A stretch of DNA of 8,985 nucleotides, from IMG/VR virus record IMGVR_UViG_2698536450_000022; one strand, 5' to 3'. The notes under the pieces were generated by a model that was not told the DNA's origin, ran no database searches, and saw nothing but the letters and a program-made list of their open reading frames with translations. The translations under genes and the position numbers were made by a program. This DNA comes from a virus. Taxonomy: Duplodnaviria; Heunggongvirae; Uroviricota; Caudoviricetes. Below are positions 1 through 8,985 of the stretch, one piece after another (within the stretch, counting starts at the first letter, position 1; each line of letters starts with the position of its first letter).

Positions 1-981
1 TTATAACGTCACTCCGCCTTTTAGTGGATTCAGAGCGACGGCATTTTGCAGATAGTCAGGCGCAAGGTGCGCATAGGCCATCGTCTGCTGAATGCTCGCA
101 TGTCCCAGAATCTGTTGCAGTGCGATTATATTGCCCCCATTCATCATGAAATGGCTTGCGAATGTATGCCGCAGGATGTGGGTTGCCTGATTGGGTGGTA
201 TATCAGGTTTCACTCTGCGTAAAATCCCGCAAAATTTCTCATAATCAACTTTGAATAATTTGGCGCTGGCCTCCTCTTTAACTTTTTTCTCCAGTTCCTC
301 AGAAATCGGCACGGTTCGCTTTTTACCGTTTTTGGTTTTCAGGAAGGTAACCCTGCAATTTGTAATCTGTGCTGGTTTTAGCGTGGCAACTTCCGTCCAT
401 CTTCCTCCGGTGCTCAGACATAAAAGCGCGACAAGTAAGTCATCACCAGCCAAAACATTTAACAGTTTTTCGATTTCTGCTTTTTCCAGGAACGTCATTT
501 CAGGGTTGGCCTCCGCCAGTGGCGGCAGTCCGTGAATTGGGTGTTGCCCGGAAAATTCATCCAATTGAATTAATTTTGTGAACATGCCGGATAATCGGTA
601 CATGTCACGGTTTATCGTTGCGGCACTGATACCATCACGTAGTCGCATGGAACGATAATCCATCAAAGCCCTTTTGCTCATCCTGCTCACTGGTATATCA
701 CCTATGCCGCTGATGGTTTTGAGTAGATGATTAAACTCTTTTGTTCCATGCTCGTGGTTTTGCCCGTGATATTTCCACCAGATGTCCAGCAACTCACTCA
801 AAGTCCGGCGGTCTGCTCGCTGGCCTCCCCATTCTTTCTGACTGGCATTGGCGATTGTGTATCGCTCAAATGCTAGTGCTTCAGCTTTTCTTTCGAATTT
901 CCTGCGGATGCGTTTTCCGTCGCGACCGCGAGGTCTAATGTCCACTTCATAGCGACCATCATCGAGCTTCTTAATTGCCAT
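1..981 (-). CDS. int: P2-like prophage integrase (tyrosine site-specific recombinase). The ORF is open to 1011, but the preferred start is the internal ATG at 981 (MAIKKLDDGRYEV...), which has a GGAGGG Shine-Dalgarno about 7 nt upstream; the ATG at 1011 has none.
   Basis: Complete minus-strand ORF with stop TAA at 1-3. The C-terminus carries the tyrosine recombinase catalytic signature (HILRHTFASHF ... LGHASIQQTMAYAH, i.e. H-x-x-R ... Y). N-terminus MAIKKLDDGRYEVDIRP and the length match P2 Int as recalled from memory. Sits immediately downstream of the C repressor, as in P2. Confidence 0.9.
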   Translation of the reverse strand: MAIKKLDDGRYEVDIRPRGRDGKRIRRKFERKAEALAFERYTIANASQKEWGGQRADRRTLSELLDIWWKYHGQNHEHGTKEFNHLLKTISGIGDIPVSRMSKRALMDYRSMRLRDGISAATINRDMYRLSGMFTKLIQLDEFSGQHPIHGLPPLAEANPEMTFLEKAEIEKLLNVLAGDDLLVALLCLSTGGRWTEVATLKPAQITNCRVTFLKTKNGKKRTVPISEELEKKVKEEASAKLFKVDYEKFCGILRRVKPDIPPNQATHILRHTFASHFMMNGGNIIALQQILGHASIQQTMAYAHLAPDYLQNAVALNPLKGGVTL

Positions 982-1050
982 AAGAAAGCCCTCCGGCGCT
1001 GTATTCACCATCTTGGTAGCAAATGGTGAAAATGTAATCTTTATATAGAG

Positions 1051-1344
1051 TTAGCCAATCCTTTTCGCGGAGTGGTTGGACTCTGTTGACTCTGGCCCAA
1101 TGTGCGCGAGAGCCGGTGCGATTTGTCCTGCGTCCGGCGCGGTTTTATCTGTCATAAGCCATAGAGCATATTTTTGGAATGTGGGATGCATAGTGATTTT
1201 TAGCAAAGCTGTGCCACCGGGTTCAAAGTTTCCTCCTTCATATTTTTTAAGTGTGCTTAGCGGTAACTCTATGATTTCACAGAATTTTGATTGGCTTAGC
1301 CCTTCAGCCTCACGCAAGGCCTTAATCTTTTCGCTTAATTTCAT
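1051..1344 (-). CDS. C: Immunity repressor, P2 C-like (97 aa)
   Basis: 97-aa minus-strand ORF directly upstream of int and divergent from cox. Size is close to P2 C (99 aa) and the C-terminal segment ...YALWLMTDKTAPDAGQIAPALAHIGPE... resembles P2 C as recalled. The N-terminal half has an HTH-like pattern (LSQSKFCEIIELPLSTLKKYE). Confidence 0.8.
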   Translation of the reverse strand: MKLSEKIKALREAEGLSQSKFCEIIELPLSTLKKYEGGNFEPGGTALLKITMHPTFQKYALWLMTDKTAPDAGQIAPALAHIGPESTESNHSAKRIG

Positions 1345-1465
1345 TTGACATGGTGCCTATATAGGGACTAAATTCCCTCAAAACTGGAACCTATATAGGT
1401 TCCATTGATTTGAGAATAAACCAGCATCTAAACGGTTTTGAGTGGTTTAGAAAGGGCTGGATCCT
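1345..1465. promoter_or_regulatory. Lysogeny/lytic switch region (divergent Pc/Pe-type promoters) with operator-like palindromes
   Basis: 121-bp intergenic region between divergent C and cox. TTGACA at 1345-1350 with a candidate -10 TAAATT at 1369-1374 (18-bp spacer) reads rightward toward cox. The 10-bp palindrome CCTATATAGG occurs twice (1356-1365 and 1390-1399); the second copy is embedded in a perfect 18-bp palindrome GGAACCTATATAGGTTCC (1386-1403). A further AGGGA-N6-TCCCT repeat lies at 1363-1378. Confidence 0.55.
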
Positions 1466-1753
1466 ATGAGGGTACCATATATGGACGCTGAAAATTATGT
1501 GATTCAGTATCCGCTTGATGCGGTTCATGTGGATAAATTTGCTGATTTATTAGGGAAGCCAAAGACAGCCGTCAGTGAAATGGTGAAGGCAAATAAATTA
1601 CCAATTATTGAATTGCGTGATCCTTGCAAACCGAAGGCTCGTGCCGGTGAAAAATGGGTTTTCATTCCTGAGTTTAATCGCGCTGTACGTGAGGCGTTTT
1701 ATAACCGACCGGTTGAACAGCGTGATGCATGGCTTTTGTGGATGGGGTTGTGA
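1466..1753 (+). CDS. cox: Cox-like excisionase / transcriptional repressor of the lysogenic promoter (95 aa)
   Basis: First gene of the rightward operon, divergent from C, as in P2. Size is close to P2 Cox (91 aa). The pattern ...KLPIIEL.DP....AGEKWVFIPEFN......RD.WLLWMGL matches what I recall of P2 Cox. Confidence 0.75.
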   Translation: MRVPYMDAENYVIQYPLDAVHVDKFADLLGKPKTAVSEMVKANKLPIIELRDPCKPKARAGEKWVFIPEFNRAVREAFYNRPVEQRDAWLLWMGL

Positions 1754-3237: not shown

Positions 3238-3509
3238 GTATTCGTATTGAAATTGGCGAACGTTATGTCGTTACCAGTGACAGCTTTCAGTTTATTCTCC
3301 ACGAGAAAAAGAGAGCGGAAAGCGGTAAAAACGCCGGTCAGGAATGGCTGGCGGTGGTTGGTTATTACCCGAAATTAGGCCAGCTCGTTTCCGGCCTGAT
3401 GCATCACGATATTCTGACCGGAAGCGCAAAATCTTTTGCTGATTTAAACGCGCAGGTTGAGCAACTCAGCAAGCGTTGTTCAGAGGCTTTTGGCTCATAT
3501 GGCCGTTAA
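3234..3509 (+). CDS. Small hypothetical protein (91 aa), P2 orf83 position
   Basis: ATGA overlap with the upstream gene at 3234-3237. The 3' end overlaps the A start by 11 nt. No recognisable catalytic motif. Confidence 0.6.
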   Translation: MSIRIEIGERYVVTSDSFQFILHEKKRAESGKNAGQEWLAVVGYYPKLGQLVSGLMHHDILTGSAKSFADLNAQVEQLSKRCSEAFGSYGR

Positions 3510-5772
3510 AGCCTCCGGGCGTTTTGTCCCTCCGTCAGCATTTACCGCAGGCACCGGTAAGGCGTTTACCGGTGCTTATGCATGGAACGCGCCACGCGAG
3601 GCTGTCGGGCGCGAAAGACCTCTTACACGTGACGAGATGCGTCAGGTGCAAGGTGTTTTATCCACGATTAACCGCCTGCCTTATTTTTTGCGCTCGCTGT
3701 TTACTTCACGCTATGACTACATCCGGCGCAATAAAAGCCCGGTGCACGGGTTTTATTTCCTCACATCTACTTTTCAGCGTCGTTTATGGCCGCGCATTGA
3801 GCGTGTGAATCAGCGCCATGAAATGAACACCGACGCGTCGTTGCTGTTTCTGGCAGAGCGTGACCACTATGCGCGCCTGCCGGGAATGAATGACAAGGAG
3901 CTGAAAAAGTTTGCCGCCCGTATCTCATCGCAGCTTTTCATGATGTATGAGGAACTCTGCGATGCATGGGTTGATGCGCATGGTGAAAAAGAATCGCTGT
4001 TTACGGATGAGGCGCAGGCTCACCTGTATGGTCATGTTGCTGGCGCTGCACGTGCTTTCAATATTTCCCCGCTCTACTGGAAAAAATACCGTAAAGGACA
4101 GATGACCACGAGGCAGGCATATTCTGCCATTGCCCGCCTGTTTAACGATGAGTGGTGGACTCATCAGCTTAAAGGCCAGCGTATGCGCTGGCATGAGGCG
4201 TTACTGATAGCTGTCGGGGAGGTCAATAAAGACCGTTCTCCTTATGCCAGTAAACACGCCATTCGTGATGTGCGTGCGCGCCGCCAGGCAAATCTGGAAT
4301 TTCTTAAATCGTGTGACCTTGAAAACAGGGAAACCGGCGAGCGCATCGACCTTATCAGTAAGGTGATGGGCAGTATTTCTAATCCTGAAATTCGCCGGAT
4401 GGAGCTGATGAACACCATTGCCGGTATTGAGCGTTACGCCGCCGCAGAGGGTGATGTGGGGATGTTTATCACGCTGACCGCGCCGTCAAAGTATCACCCG
4501 ACACGTCAGGTCGGAAAAGGCGAAAGTAAAACCGTTCAGCTTAATCACGGCTGGAACGATGAGGCATTTAATCCAAAGGATGCGCAGCGTTATCTCTGCC
4601 GTATCTGGAGCCTGATGCGCACGGCATTCAAGGATAATGATTTACAGGTCTACGGTTTGCGAGTCGTCGAGCCACACCACGACGGAACGCCGCACTGGCA
4701 TATGATGCTTTTTTGTCATCCACGCCAGCGTAACCAGATTATCGAAATCATGCGTCGCTATGCGCTCAAAGAGGATGGCGACGAAAGAGGAGCCGCGCGA
4801 AACCGTTTTCAGGCAAAACACCTTAACCGGGGCGGTGCTGCGGGATATATCGCGAAATACATTTCAAAAAACATCGACGGCTATGCACTGGATGGTCAGC
4901 TCGATAACGACACCGGCAGGCCGCTGAAAGACACTGCAGCGGCTGTTACCGCATGGGCGTCAACGTGGCGCATTCCGCAATTTAAAACGGTTGGCCTGCC
5001 GACAATGGGGGCTTACCGTGAACTACGCAAATTGCCTCGCGGCGTCAGCATTGCTGATGAGTTTGACGAGCGCGTCGAGGCTGCACGCGCCGCCGCAGAC
5101 AGTGGTGATTTTGCGCTGTATATCAGCGCGCAGGGCGGGGCAAATGTCCCGCGCGATTGTCAGACTGTCAGGGTCGCCCGTAGTCTGTCGGATGACGTTA
5201 ACGAGTACGAGGAAGAAGTCGAGAGAGTGGTCGGCATTTACGCGCCGCATCTCGGCGCGCGTCATATTCATATCACCAGAACGACGGACTGGCGCATTGT
5301 GCCGAAAGTTCCGGTCGTTGAGCCTTTGACTTTAAAAAGCGGCATCGCCGCGCCTCGGAGTCCTGTCAATAACTGTGGAAAACTCACCGGTGGTGATACT
5401 TCGTTACCGGCTCCCACACCTTCTGAGCACGCCGCAGCAGTGCTTAATCTGGTTGATGACGGTGTTATCGAATGGAGTGACCCGGAGGTCGTGAGGGCGC
5501 TCAGAGGTGCATTAAAACACGGTCGGAGAACGCCAAGTCGTCAGCAAAGAAACGGAAGCCCGTTAAAACCACATGAAATTGCACCATCGGCCAGACTGAC
5601 CCGGTCGGAAAGAATGCAAATTACCCGTATCCGCGTTGACCTTGCTCAGAACGGTATCAGGCCGCAGCGATGGGAGCTTGAGGCGCTGGCGCGTGGCGCG
5701 ACCGTAAATTATGATGGGAAAACGTTTTCATATCCGATTTCTGATGGTTGGGCGGGATTTGAAACAAACTAA
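3499..5772 (+). CDS. A: Rolling-circle replication initiator (P2 gpA-type HUH replication endonuclease); 757 aa from the ATG at 3499, ORF open from the TTG at 3457
   Basis: HUH-type metal-binding motif ...HHDGTPHWHMMLF (HH at 4675-4680, PHWH at 4690-4701). Paired active-site tyrosines in GYIAKYISKNIDGY (Y codons at 4846-4848 and 4858-4860). Size and position after B and the small ORFs match P2 gene A (761 aa as recalled). The ATG at 3499 gives MAVKASGRFVP... Confidence 0.9.
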   Translation: MAVKASGRFVPPSAFTAGTGKAFTGAYAWNAPREAVGRERPLTRDEMRQVQGVLSTINRLPYFLRSLFTSRYDYIRRNKSPVHGFYFLTSTFQRRLWPRIERVNQRHEMNTDASLLFLAERDHYARLPGMNDKELKKFAARISSQLFMMYEELCDAWVDAHGEKESLFTDEAQAHLYGHVAGAARAFNISPLYWKKYRKGQMTTRQAYSAIARLFNDEWWTHQLKGQRMRWHEALLIAVGEVNKDRSPYASKHAIRDVRARRQANLEFLKSCDLENRETGERIDLISKVMGSISNPEIRRMELMNTIAGIERYAAAEGDVGMFITLTAPSKYHPTRQVGKGESKTVQLNHGWNDEAFNPKDAQRYLCRIWSLMRTAFKDNDLQVYGLRVVEPHHDGTPHWHMMLFCHPRQRNQIIEIMRRYALKEDGDERGAARNRFQAKHLNRGGAAGYIAKYISKNIDGYALDGQLDNDTGRPLKDTAAAVTAWASTWRIPQFKTVGLPTMGAYRELRKLPRGVSIADEFDERVEAARAAADSGDFALYISAQGGANVPRDCQTVRVARSLSDDVNEYEEEVERVVGIYAPHLGARHIHITRTTDWRIVPKVPVVEPLTLKSGIAAPRSPVNNCGKLTGGDTSLPAPTPSEHAAAVLNLVDDGVIEWSDPEVVRALRGALKHGRRTPSRQQRNGSPLKPHEIAPSARLTRSERMQITRIRVDLAQNGIRPQRWELEALARGATVNYDGKTFSYPISDGWAGFETN

Positions 5773-5781
5773 CAATAATGA

Positions 5782-5883
5782 TTGACATGCTTGATTTTGT
5801 ATTCACAAATCAAGCATCAAGTAAACATCGATGATGAGAAAGAACAATGCTACAATCCCCACAGCATTAGAAGGAGGTTTATC
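5782..5883 (+). promoter_or_regulatory. Promoter/operator region of the methyltransferase gene
   Basis: TTGACA at 5782-5787. Perfect 9-bp inverted repeat GCTTGATTT (5789-5797) / AAATCAAGC (5807-5815) with a 9-bp spacer. Extended -10 TGcTACAAT at 5848-5856. Shine-Dalgarno AAGGAGG at 5871-5877, 6 nt before the TTG at 5884. Confidence 0.55.
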
Positions 5884-6933
5884 TTGATTAAGGTTGTTGA
5901 TTTATTCTGTGGCGCGGGTGGCTTGACTCACGGTCTTCAGAAGTCGGGGCTTAATGTAGTTGCAGGTTATGATATAGATGCAGCCTGTCGATTTGCCTAT
6001 GAGACAAATAATAAATCACTCTTTGTCCAGAAAAGTGTTACAGACATTGAGGACGGCGAATTAGTTAAATATTTCGAAGGAGCGAAGGTTCGAGTTTTGG
6101 CTGGTTGTGCCCCATGCCAACCTTTTTCAAGCTATACCAATAGTGCTAAATTAGGGGTAGTACGTTCAAAAGATAAAAGATGGTCTTTGCTTTATAGCTT
6201 TGCTAAGCAAATTAAATTTGCAAAGCCAGATATTATTACAATGGAAAACGTTCCCCGAGTGGTGAATCATAAGGTTTTTAAGGACTTCATTAAGTCTCTT
6301 AAAAATGATGGCTATTTTGTTTGGTATGGGGTGGTGTTTTGTCCAGACTATGGAATGGCACAAAGTCGTTCAAGATTAGTGTTATTGGCATCAAAATATG
6401 GAGAAATAGAAATAATTCCACCAACTCATGAGAAGAATGATTATAAAACGGTGCGAGATATAATCGGTAATCTTCCTGAAATTAGTGCCGGTGCTGTTCA
6501 CGCTGGAGATAAACTACATCGCTCTGCATCATTATCTGATATTAATATAAAAAGAATAATGGCATCAAAACCTGGTGGAACATGGCGTGATTGGCCAGAA
6601 GAGCTAAGAGCAAAATGTCATACAAAAGAAAGTGGTTCTACATATACTGCTGTATATGGGAGAATGTGTTGGGATAAACTTGGACCGACAATTACAACTC
6701 AATGTATTGGATATGGGAATGGACGCTTTGGGCACCCTGTCCAAAATAGAGCATTAAGTTTAAGAGAGGCTGCGCTATTACAGTCATTCCCAGAAAAGTA
6801 TGAGTTTTGGCCTGATGATGTAAAAATTGAAATGAGAACAGTTGCGCGTTTAATAGGTAATGCTGTTCCTGTTAGGCTTGGTGAGGTCGTAGGTGAAACT
6901 ATTTTAAAACATTTGTCAGAAATGAATATTTAA
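5884..6933 (+). CDS. DNA (cytosine-5)-methyltransferase, Dcm/C5-MTase family; about 349 aa from the TTG start at 5884 (ORF open from the ATG at 5782, but that extension lacks an RBS and looks non-coding)
   Basis: Canonical C5-MTase motifs in order: motif I DLFCGAGG (5899-5922), catalytic motif IV GCAPCQPFSSY (PCQ at 6112-6120), motif VI ENV (6244-6252), motif VIII QSRSRLVLL, and C-terminal motifs IX/X ...RLIGNAVPVRLGEVVGE. A variable region between VIII and IX is consistent with a target-recognition domain. Confidence 0.9.
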   Translation: MIKVVDLFCGAGGLTHGLQKSGLNVVAGYDIDAACRFAYETNNKSLFVQKSVTDIEDGELVKYFEGAKVRVLAGCAPCQPFSSYTNSAKLGVVRSKDKRWSLLYSFAKQIKFAKPDIITMENVPRVVNHKVFKDFIKSLKNDGYFVWYGVVFCPDYGMAQSRSRLVLLASKYGEIEIIPPTHEKNDYKTVRDIIGNLPEISAGAVHAGDKLHRSASLSDINIKRIMASKPGGTWRDWPEELRAKCHTKESGSTYTAVYGRMCWDKLGPTITTQCIGYGNGRFGHPVQNRALSLREAALLQSFPEKYEFWPDDVKIEMRTVARLIGNAVPVRLGEVVGETILKHLSEMNI

Positions 6934-6975: not shown

Positions 6976-8985
6976 TTAGATTCCCTCAACTATTTTCATA
7001 ATTCTAGCTGCATCATTCTTTTTGTCTTGATATTCAGCATAGGCTTGTTTTGATTGCACGATTAGGTCATTATATGTCAATATTTTTCCATTGATAGAAA
7101 GTAATTGCATATTTATAAAGTGTTGGTTCTCTTGTAAATATCCAGAGCCAACCAGGAATATTACTTCTATATGCGGTATATTTCCACCTGGGCAATTTTT
7201 AGGGTTATTGGAGAACCATTGTGTCGTTGCCTGTACATATTTATTACCTTGTGCGACTAGGTTCATTATATCTGGGTGCACTTTAGGTCGTTTCATCTCA
7301 ATAATTACATGCTTGCCAGAAACGGTTTTGAAAGCGATATCAATACGAGCACCGCTAGCAGCATCAGGGTTTATCTGTTTTAGTTCCTTGGTCAATGTTT
7401 GCTCCATAACAGATGTGCCTGTGACTCTTTCCCATGAAGGATCCAATAACCATAAATGATCATATAAATACATTTGTACAGCTCTTTCAAGCTGATTTTC
7501 ATCAGTTATTTTTTGGAATTTTTCAATTACTTTAAGGCGTTGCGAAGTAATTTCATAAAACATGCTTGCTTCAATGTCATTGACAGATGCAAATACATCT
7601 TTAAAATTTTCTGATTGAAGGTTGCTTATTTTATCTAATGCATCAAGGTTGTCTTGAATTCTAAGTCTTTCAAAGGCTAATACCGTATTTTTTAATACGG
7701 TTTTTCTTGCTGCTTTTTGTTCTTCCTCATTACCAGAAAAACGGAATGTGTTTACTCGTCCAATTAACTTTTCGGCACTTTCTCTCTCATGTTTTTTGAG
7801 AGAATTCAGCCATTCACTTACTATTGGAGTATTGCTTTTAACTTCATTTACTCCTTTTTCGCGTCTCCATTTATCCCAATCTTTATCGATTAGTTGTAGC
7901 GTTCTTTCCAGAAAACCTTTAAGTACAGGGTATCTTGGATCATTCTGTTGTAGTTTTTGACGAGAAGATGTTGCCATATCAGGCTTTTCGTTATCATCTA
8001 GAAAATCGGCGACTATTTCACCGACCAGATAATTGGTGAATACTTTAGCACTTCCAAATTCTAATAATATGTCCTCCTCAAAAACACGTCCGTGAGAGAT
8101 TACAGTAATGCTGTTGTTAGATATTTCAGGGTCTTTCTTTAACTGTGATGGCTTAACTACACTGCCAATGTACCCACTAACTTTTACATCTTTTCCTTCA
8201 AAGGTAATAGTATTTGGTAATATGTTTTTTTGTGTGATGTTTGTGCAGGATTTTATCCTTTCAGGGTCGGATTCGCCAAATTCCCAAATGAACTCGAGAT
8301 CTGAAAGGAAATCTCTATCTGCCGGTGTAATATCGGTCCCATTAATTTTAACTGTAAAGTTATGGTTGGGGCCAATAATGCTAAATCGACGAGCTATTCG
8401 CTTTCTGAGGTAAGTTTGAGTCCTATCAATGGCTTTTTTTAGTTCAAATAATTTAATTGTAGTGCCGTAAGCAAGATTTTCGGGTATTTCAAGGGAGTCA
8501 GCAATATAGTTTTTTGATTCTTTGATACTTTGCTGTAAATCTTTGACATCTACCTCAAAGGCCTGAGGCTGTTCCCCCTTTTTGTACGAATAAACTTGGA
8601 TTTTATTGGCAAGTGAAAACATGGCAAGCTTACCAATACCTTTTCTGCCCATAACTTGACGTTTTAGATGATCGCTTTTGGCTCTTCCATGTTCCCTGCG
8701 AGCATAACCGACTTTTAGGAACTTATTAATAATGTCATCTTTAGACATGCCATGACCATCATCTTTAATGATGACCTCTCCTTTCTCAACATCAAGTGTA
8801 ATTTCTACATTTTGAGCATCTGCATCCCATGCATTTGATATAATCTCAGTTAGTACCGCGGGAGTATTGGAATAGAGACTCATCCCTAGGGAAGGTGCGA
8901 ATAAGCAGGTCATTTCTTCCCAAGCTGACTCGCTGATTAAAATTTCGCGGATCTGGGCCGATTTTTTTCCCGTAAACACATCGAA
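6976..8985 (-). CDS. GHKL-family ATPase (MORC/MutL/Hsp90-like Bergerat fold) fused to a C-terminal PD-(D/E)xK nuclease domain; putative ATP-dependent restriction/defence nuclease. 5' end is incomplete: the frame is open to the window edge.
   Basis: Minus-strand ORF with stop at 6976-6978. GHKL motifs: N-box EIISNAWDA (8821-8847), G1 box DDGHGM (8746-8763), G2 box GRKGIGKLA (8623-8649). C-terminal RIDIAF ... IIEMK gives D547 / E561 / K563 of a PD-(D/E)xK core (7291-7341). The track's start at 8977-8979 is GTG, and the two codons upstream to 8985 (F, D) are in frame with no stop, so the true start is probably beyond the window. Confidence 0.85.
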   Translation of the reverse strand, partial: FDVFTGKKSAQIREILISESAWEEMTCLFAPSLGMSLYSNTPAVLTEIISNAWDADAQNVEITLDVEKGEVIIKDDGHGMSKDDIINKFLKVGYARREHGRAKSDHLKRQVMGRKGIGKLAMFSLANKIQVYSYKKGEQPQAFEVDVKDLQQSIKESKNYIADSLEIPENLAYGTTIKLFELKKAIDRTQTYLRKRIARRFSIIGPNHNFTVKINGTDITPADRDFLSDLEFIWEFGESDPERIKSCTNITQKNILPNTITFEGKDVKVSGYIGSVVKPSQLKKDPEISNNSITVISHGRVFEEDILLEFGSAKVFTNYLVGEIVADFLDDNEKPDMATSSRQKLQQNDPRYPVLKGFLERTLQLIDKDWDKWRREKGVNEVKSNTPIVSEWLNSLKKHERESAEKLIGRVNTFRFSGNEEEQKAARKTVLKNTVLAFERLRIQDNLDALDKISNLQSENFKDVFASVNDIEASMFYEITSQRLKVIEKFQKITDENQLERAVQMYLYDHLWLLDPSWERVTGTSVMEQTLTKELKQINPDAASGARIDIAFKTVSGKHVIIEMKRPKVHPDIMNLVAQGNKYVQATTQWFSNNPKNCPGGNIPHIEVIFLVGSGYLQENQHFINMQLLSINGKILTYNDLIVQSKQAYAEYQDKKNDAARIMKIVEGI

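Follow-up and report, generated by a model that had tools for sequence, protein, structure and literature searches.

The C repressors of P2-type phages recognise two direct repeats, termed half-sites (PMC1904268), and all classes of C have been stated to use repeats that are not palindromic (PMC2995052). These are 8-bp repeats placed 22 bp apart and flanking the -10 element in P2, 8-bp repeats placed 26 bp apart and flanking the -35 element in P2 Hy dis, and 10-bp repeats placed 34 bp apart and flanking the -10 element in WPhi, the operators of which were studied by Henriksson-Peltola et al. 2007 (PMC1904268). Point mutations in both WPhi repeats abolish repression, whereas a single-site mutant stays repressed (PMC1904268). 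The crystal structure of P2 C (2XCJ; Massad et al. 2010, PMC2995052) is that of a symmetric dimer, which superposes on the complex of P22 c2 with its palindromic operator, and its authors found such a dimer hard to reconcile with direct repeats (PMC2995052). Here, we analyse the lysogeny switch in a stretch of 8,985 bp from the viral record IMGVR_UViG_2698536450_000022 (the window, meaning this whole stretch), which represents the early/lysogeny part of a P2-like prophage (Peduovirus). The short region between its C repressor gene, read leftward, and its cox gene, read rightward, contains two dyad-symmetric sites, at 1351-1370 and 1385-1404. We think it quite probable that these dyads are the operators O1 and O2 of the 97-aa C protein and that each would bind one symmetric dimer. 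The elements of the switch, including the early promoter Pe and the leftward promoter Pc, are the following.

1345 to 1350, plus strand: -35 element of Pe, TTGACA, from the promoter scan; it directly abuts the C start codon.
1351 to 1370: predicted operator O1, an imperfect 20-bp dyad made of TGGTGCCTAT and ATAGGGACTA, with 8 of 10 pairs and the core CCTATATAGG at 1356-1365, in the -35/-10 spacer.
1369 to 1374, plus strand: -10 element of Pe, TAAATT, after an 18-bp spacer, from the promoter scan; it aligns with the WPhi -10 TATATT.
1385 to 1404: predicted operator O2, a perfect 20-bp palindrome made of TGGAACCTAT and ATAGGTTCCA, around the core CCTATATAGG (1390-1399), covering about +4 to +24 of the transcript predicted from Pe.
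1459 to 1477, minus strand: candidate Pc with the extended -10 TGgTACCCT (1477-1469), from homology to the annotated Pc of WPhi.

The two copies of CCTATATAGG have their centres 34 bp apart and are the only two places in the window, on either strand, that match this 10-mer with at most one mismatch (the mean in shuffled sequences was 0.13, and a count of two was reached in one of 200 shuffles). The symmetry extends beyond this core. O2 as a whole reads TGGAACCTATATAGGTTCCA and is the best 18-bp dyad of the region, with nine of nine pairs (0 of 300 shuffles); the O1 dyad has P = 0.007, and the repeat scan places its arms of 9 nt at 1353-1361 and 1360-1368 (89%). The flanks of the two sites match in inverted orientation (ATGGnnCCTATATAGG at O1 against the complement at O2, 16 nt, 88%). 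A search with the 18-bp pattern GGNNCCTATATAGGNNCC, allowing up to three mismatches, gave three matches, all of them in the switch, against 0.13 expected. Neither this search nor a follow-up scan revealed operator-like sites outside the switch in the window, and the repeat scan of the switch gave no further repeated motif besides the CCTATATAGG sites. Since the sole sigma-70-like match in positions 1000-1800 is TTGACA-18-TAAATT (1345-1374), the first copy lies in the -35/-10 spacer and the second just past the -10 element, near the expected start. The initial annotation had located both copies, their spacing and the promoter correctly, and was right that both copies overlap or flank this rightward promoter. 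It had also described an 18-bp palindrome, GGAACCTATATAGGTTCC, at 1386-1403, which is perfect but extends to 20 bp, and had opposed palindromic to direct repeats. The latter is a false choice: each site is dyad-symmetric, and the two sites are direct repeats of a palindrome.

The placement of these sites is that of the WPhi operators. We confirmed two copies of the 10-mer TATTGGTGAC in WPhi, located +12 and +46 relative to its TTGACA, and the copies of CCTATATAGG in the window are at +11 and +45. Because of the same length, the same 34-bp spacing and the nearly equal offsets from TTGACA, we regard the repeats of the window as positional homologues of the WPhi O1 and O2. Both phages have a C of 97 aa, a C start codon that abuts the TTGACA of Pe and two 10-bp repeats flanking the -10 element (the WPhi -10 TATATT falls within the Pe feature annotated in the WPhi record), and their Cox proteins are 82% identical. 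They differ in the nature of the sites: those of WPhi, mapped by mutagenesis, are without significant dyad, whereas those of the window are true dyads, known from sequence. A 1999 study by Liu and Haggard-Ljungquist is reportedly the one to name for the WPhi C repressor with its O1 and O2. The likeness to P2 itself is one of protein family, of layout (int-C and cox-B-A) and of two sites flanking the -10 element of Pe. In contrast, the P2 repeats, annotated twice around the -10 element in the P2 record, are non-palindromic 8-bp copies of GTTTAGAT at a distance of 22 bp, and the -35 of Pe in that record overlaps the C start, whereas the TTGACA of WPhi and of the window adjoins it. Hence, as in P2-type switches, two repeats bracket a core element of Pe, here identical 10-mers around the -10 as read from the sequence; unlike in the characterised classes of such switches, the repeats are palindromic, perfectly so in O2 and over 8 of 10 pairs in O1.

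A second line of evidence comes from natural variants. We compared positions 1318-1500 in 38 sequences, made up of phage isolates and of 35 IMG/VR loci in which the opening codons of C match exactly. Two haplotypes, separated only by a common A/G at 1426, account for 33 of them, and the other five have rare private changes. Phage L-413C is a lytic clear-plaque derivative of the temperate L-413 (PMC2893161, PMC3448106). Its C is 100% identical to that of the window, and it has the private changes C1356A in O1, T1373C in the -10 element and C1402A in the flank of O2. Phage R18C was published as virulent, without explanation (PMC6823313); its C is intact, and over 801 bp it departs from the common haplotype only in its private changes G1364T in O1 and C1390T in O2. 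When the half-sites are read towards the centre (TGGTGCCTAT, TAGTCCCTAT, TGGAACCTAT and TGGAACCTAT), all four operator substitutions fall on positions that are invariant in the four half-sites (G3, C6, C7), with C1356A and C1390T in left halves and G1364T and C1402A in right halves. The private changes cluster in the sites: when 3.1 kb were compared with 33-35 relatives, three of the 10 private alleles of L-413C were in the 60-bp Pe/operator stretch of 3,100 bp (binomial P = 8e-4), and two of the 15 of R18C were in the two 10-mers (20 of 3,100 bp; binomial P = 4e-3). Three E. coli lysogens have single changes, namely G1352A and G1355A, at positions that are not invariant, and C1384A, immediately next to O2. 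In one IMG/VR locus the outermost base of O2 is changed (A1404G), and T1374C, in the -10 element, is present in one IMG/VR locus and in one E. coli prophage without cox. The pattern in L-413C and R18C is the one that would be expected of operator-constitutive 'vir' mutants and mirrors the need for both sites to be mutated in WPhi: as in lambda vir and in the WPhi double operator mutant, where escape needs more than one operator site changed, these phages have one change per site. We infer that the operator substitutions would be the cause of the lytic phenotype of L-413C and R18C.

A third line of evidence comes from the relatives of C. In 80 loci encoding C homologues, taken from one genome per species, the sequence downstream of the C start was analysed. 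The core CC(T/C)ATATAGG is present at both positions, beside a C with the ST[LY]KKYE helix, in Enterobacter (L066) and Dryocola (L070), and the same pair with the same helix occurs in three Pseudomonas species (L103, L116, L122). The CC (= GG) dinucleotide, read by eye, is invariant in 24 of 24 half-sites. Other relatives have palindromic pairs of unrelated sequence: GGTTCCTTATAAGGAACC in Trabulsiella, GTTCC-N8-GGAAC in Pseudomonas soli and GGTTCG-N6-CGAACC in Ferrimonas. When the best 18-bp dyad of each switch was compared with shuffles, 12 of 70 distinct switches had P <= 0.05, against 3.5 expected (an earlier dyad scan, over a slightly different interval, gave 13 significant among 73 switches). 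Significant dyads are found in 9 of the 18 switches whose C has a Lys-Lys or Arg-Lys helix and in 3 of the 52 others (Fisher P = 1e-4), these residues being scored at the positions aligned with the base-contacting S35 and Y36 of P2 C. In switches of the P2 and WPhi types, direct repeats are significant and dyads are not. Since significant dyads cluster in the Lys-Lys/Arg-Lys switches and the P2 and WPhi types have direct repeats only, the C family, as far as sequence tells, has members of either architecture at the same places of the promoter, and the prophage of the window belongs to the palindromic clade. Such a clade fits with P2 C being a symmetric dimer like palindrome binders such as P22 c2. 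Whether recognition symmetry switched within the C family, so that the Lys-Lys/Arg-Lys clade, of which this common E. coli prophage is a tractable member, would bind true palindromes as symmetric dimers, in contrast with the asymmetric direct repeats of P2 and WPhi, and whether L-413C and R18C are vir double mutants of temperate phages rather than P2-like phages that are lytic by nature, is a broader proposal that we hold with belief and doubt in equal measure.

The protein itself belongs to the P2 C family. A phmmer search of the PDB matched residues 3-97 of C to the 'C protein' entries 2L49/2XCJ (E = 1.9e-21), and P2 C was the only structure that this search gave at E <= 0.01. The identity of C is 43% with P2 C and 56% with WPhi C; the alignment of the family has 29 invariant columns, among them the GQIAPALAH tail. 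The recognition helix region is ELPLSTLKKYEGGN, in which K33 and K34 align with S35 and Y36 of P2 C. The base-contacting positions Y31/T33/S35/Y36/R41 of P2 C (PMC2995052) are L/T/K/K/N in the C of the window, and the recognition helix reads LSTLKKY, against LGTVKNY in WPhi C. P22 c2, 434 cI and C.Esp1396I are small helix-turn-helix (HTH) dimers that bind dyads of about 14-20 bp, as is proposed for the C of the window; this likeness is one of functional analogy only, because these proteins are not sequence relatives. C.Esp1396I, the controller of a restriction-modification (R-M) system, binds directly repeated palindromes with one dimer per repeat, as is proposed for O1 and O2, its sites being 15 bp apart against 34 here.

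The mechanism that we propose would work as follows. C would be made from the weak leftward promoter Pc and, if it binds O1 and O2 as predicted, one symmetric dimer would sit on each dyad of about 20 bp, with the half-site consensus T-G-G-n-n-C-C-T-A-T, the GG/CC steps of which Lys33 and Lys34 may read. One dimer would lie in the -35/-10 spacer of Pe and the other over its start site. Together they would exclude RNA polymerase from Pe and keep cox, B and A silent, while the expression of C and int from Pc would go on through the region. The shut-off of Pe would then make the lysogen immune to superinfection by phages that have these operators. By analogy with the published work on this class (PMC10321612), C is expected to repress Pe and to confer immunity.

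A number of observations weigh against this account: 1) the distance from dyad to dyad varies from 22 to 37 bp among the relatives (read by eye), which makes cooperativity between dimers uncertain and a fixed helix-face relation doubtful; 2) WPhi has no significant dyad at the same positions and the literature describes C operators as non-palindromic direct repeats, which leaves room for an asymmetric reading of one half; 3) the parent L-413 is unsequenced, so that which mutations are private was judged against the consensus of the relatives; 4) there are other private changes in the 3.1 kb, seven in L-413C and 13 in R18C (11 of them in int); 5) the T1373C change of L-413C (TAAATT to TAAACT) is odd for a lytic derivative, as the promoter is not improved; and 6) H-NS also binds Pe fragments of phage HQ103 (PMC10321612). 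The 11 private int substitutions of R18C cluster at the equivalent of positions 94-815 of the window, which suggests a recombinant or diverged integrase segment that could contribute to failed lysogeny.

The most serious alternative is that C reads its operators asymmetrically, as direct repeats, with one monomer bound specifically and the other non-specifically; the palindromy would then be incidental, e.g., a by-product of TATATA. This is the literature model for the C family, and the geometry of the window is identical to that of the WPhi direct repeats. Some relatives also speak for it: the closest, from Kosakonia (L052), has the same helix, has kept the left half (TGGAACCTATAT) and has changed the right one, and several relatives with a Lys-Lys helix (L080, L086) have plain direct repeats. 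We nevertheless consider it unlikely, because O2 is symmetric over 20 bp, far past the AT core, because the lytic phages have substitutions in the right halves (G1364T, C1402A) as well as in the left ones (C1356A, C1390T), and because independent palindromic pairs of unrelated sequence occur in the relatives, with dyads enriched in the clade.

The palindrome of O2 might otherwise act as RNA, either as a stabilising stem-loop at the 5' end or as a weak, possibly bidirectional attenuator between the convergent promoters Pe and Pc. The terminator-like scan flags 1385-1404 together with TTGATTTGAG, the O2 hairpin has a predicted energy of -11.3 kcal/mol (z = -3.25), and in WPhi, P37, SW3 and many further classes O2 lies between the arms of an inverted repeat, AAAAGGT...ACCTTTT. 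Such a role would account neither for O1, which is upstream of the Pe start, nor for the paired O1 and O2 substitutions of the lytic isolates; the T-rich tail, only TTGATTTG here, is missing in L066 and L070, two relatives with this operator core, and the WPhi leader folds no better than shuffles (z = -0.62). As a replacement for operator function, we regard it as very improbable; a role at the RNA level may coexist with operators that bind C. In its own right, the bracketing repeat, AAAAGGT-N12-ACCTTTT, lies where the early transcript is predicted to begin (1369-1395 in WPhi, L001; also in P37 and SW3), and its arms are kept across different operator cores in many classes with a K-N helix (many L05x-L09x loci). 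It is hardly credible that the palindromes do no more than supply AT-rich elements for the promoter or for a nucleoid protein (TATATA boxes of the -10 type or sites of H-NS nucleation), with no specific contact to C, which would bind elsewhere. In favour of such a reading are the likeness of the TATATA cores to -10 hexamers and the finding that H-NS shifts HQ103 fragments with Pe or Pc and silences Pe at 21 °C (PMC10321612). Against it, the bases that are invariant or mutated are the G/C bases next to the AT core, neither TATATA has the proper spacing from a -35, the switch has no other repeated motif, and its sites are homologous to those mapped in WPhi.

The comparison with described phages also bears on the immunity of the prophage. 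Karlsson et al. are said to have defined, in 2006, the immunity classes I-VII. Members of a class share at least 95% identity in C (PMC3448106). The window has the operator geometry of the WPhi class, but not its sequence, as shown by C (56%) and by CCTATATAGG against TATTGGTGAC. P2 Hy dis is likewise a heteroimmune P2-type switch with two C sites, and its C is 63% identical to P2 C (PMC1904268), against 43% for that of the window, so that the two are not of the same class. An immunity shared with P2, WPhi or P2 Hy dis was thus rejected, given the differences in C identity and operators. The relevant group is that of L-413C, HQ103 and R18C, with identical C and a nearly identical C-cox spacer (99.3-100% over the switch). 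Positions 1000-1800 have 99.3-100% identity to Yersinia phage L-413C, HQ103, R18C, Salmonella phage FSL SP-004 and others, and C is 100% identical in L-413C, R18C, FSL SP-004, vB_YpM_50 and P24B2. The 146-bp switch was found in 420 of 5,426 complete E. coli genomes, with at least 99% identity in 382. Since the same switch is present in L-413C, HQ103, R18C and these 420 genomes, the immunity group of the prophage is known and widespread; by sequence, it is heteroimmune to P2, WPhi and P2 Hy dis. The initial annotation had proposed a distinct specificity, which holds with respect to P2 (C 43%, other site sequence) but is not new in view of L-413C, HQ103 and R18C. The comparison of operators across P2-like groups that it suggested shows that CCTATATAGG differs from both the P2 GTTTAGAT and the WPhi TATTGGTGAC. 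It had also rightly recognised a P2-type C/Cox gene set, as seen in the match of C to 2XCJ/2L49, the Pfam Phage_Cox domain and the int-C / cox-B-A order, and its statement that P2 C uses direct repeats and 186 CI inverted repeats agrees with the literature (PMC1904268, PMC2995052).

Phage 186 resembles the window in its face-to-face lytic and lysogenic promoters and its dyad-symmetric operators, but it differs in a CI of about twice the size with two domains, a CII-activated promoter and distal sites with looping (PMC1904268). We took three features as the marks of a 186-type switch: a CI of about 190 aa with two domains, a cII gene, and further operator sites at a distance. Such a switch was rejected: C has 97 aa and one domain, there is no cII (cox is followed by the orf78 homologue and then by B), and the window has no operator-like sites outside the switch.

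The type of switch, the group of immunity and the placement of the operators are either known already or could be predicted from WPhi. A full-text literature search for CCTATATAGG returned no phage paper, and such searches for L-413C returned no paper on its genome. In the literature covered, which was without Karlsson et al. 2006 and Garcia et al. 2008, genuine palindromes in this class and sub-clade appear undescribed, and so, within the same limits, do L-413C and R18C as double operator mutants. The element is otherwise an ordinary and well-understood phage switch, and it brings a useful twist to a niche structural question. The structure of P2 C left the puzzle of a symmetric dimer that reads non-palindromic direct repeats (PMC2995052); an abundant close relative with palindromes at the same promoter positions, together with two ready-made operator-mutant phages, offers a direct comparison. 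L-413C, used in plague diagnostics, and R18C, used in Citrobacter and Shigella models, may be lytic only through two to three operator substitutions. If so, this matters for how stable they are as lytic phages and for their behaviour on hosts lysogenic for this very common type of prophage.

Phage HQ103 gives further information on the group. Its positions 1318-1500 are identical to those of the window and of eight IMG/VR viral contigs, and a full-length C homologue of 294 bp, given in trans, blocks its plaque formation (PMC10321612). Its clear plaques were partly ascribed to a 'mutation of promoter Pc', the reporter signal of Pc being undetectable (PMC10321612). Since the HQ103 switch is identical to that of the window, this undetectable signal probably reflects the normal weakness of Pc, and the only lesion of HQ103 is probably a 7-bp deletion in C. 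Pc itself probably corresponds to TGgTACCCT, which resembles an extended -10 and lies on the minus strand at 1477-1469; its counterpart in the annotated Pc of WPhi is TGtTACCCT (TGnTACCCT in common). The third and weakest match to the 18-bp pattern, GGATCCTATGAGGGTACC at 1459-1476 with three mismatches, overlaps this element. We did not adopt it as a third operator, because the sequence is also conserved in the heteroimmune P37 and WPhi, which makes a constraint from Pc or from the cox ribosome-binding site probable, rather than one from C; it could be a weak autoregulatory site. Between O2 and Pc (1425-1450) there is a TAAACGG(T) motif, with a nearby inverted copy (CTAAAC at 1428-1433 and GTTTAG at 1444-1449), which is conserved across heteroimmune classes with similar Cox (loci L003, L004, L052, L063, L071 and L072) and is a candidate Cox-binding region. 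The dyads are unlikely to be the Cox site, as they are not conserved between the window and WPhi despite the similarity of Cox; the conservation of the TAAACGG-type motif, further right, in their place also counts against it.

The layout around the switch, from open reading frames (ORFs) and Pfam, is int-C on one strand and cox-B-A on the other, with the short intergenic region between them.

1 to 1011, minus strand: int, tyrosine integrase, the second gene of the leftward (lysogenic) operon (ORF list; Pfam Int_N and Phage_integrase).
1051 to 1344, minus strand: C immunity repressor, 97 aa, a single HTH domain (match to PDB 2XCJ/2L49; Pfam HTH_3).
1466 to 1753, plus strand: cox (Cox repressor/excisionase), the first gene of the early operon (Pfam Phage_Cox, 1.2e-23).
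1917 to 2423: B, named after annotated homologues in WPhi and L-413C.
3457 to 5772: replication gene A (Pfam Phage_GPA).

Past cox, the order is the orf78 homologue, B, the homologues of orf80-83 and A, the names orf78, B and orf80-83 being taken from annotated homologues in WPhi and L-413C. Two start codons deserve comment. An out-of-frame ATG on the minus strand (1349-1351), inside the -35 region, would give MSNEIKRKD followed by a stop, to be compared with the N-terminus MSNTISEKI of P2 C; the C start appears shifted by a frameshift relative to P2. The cox ORF opens at ATG 1466 (95 aa), residue 1 of WPhi Cox aligns with ATG 1481 (the alignment starting from residue 6), the RefSeq cox has 273 bp and starts at the equivalent of 1481, and there is a good Shine-Dalgarno sequence, GAGGG, at 1468-1472; the true start of Cox is probably ATG 1481, with a product of 90 aa. 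After A, the window encodes a C5 cytosine DNA methylase (5782-6933, plus strand; PF00145, 1e-55) and, convergent with it, a 667-aa GHKL-ATPase protein (6976-8979, minus strand) that matches the PADLOC 'type II restriction enzyme' model PDLC03419 (4.6e-90). The pair looks like an R-M-like module in the tin/old (TO) hotspot of P2.

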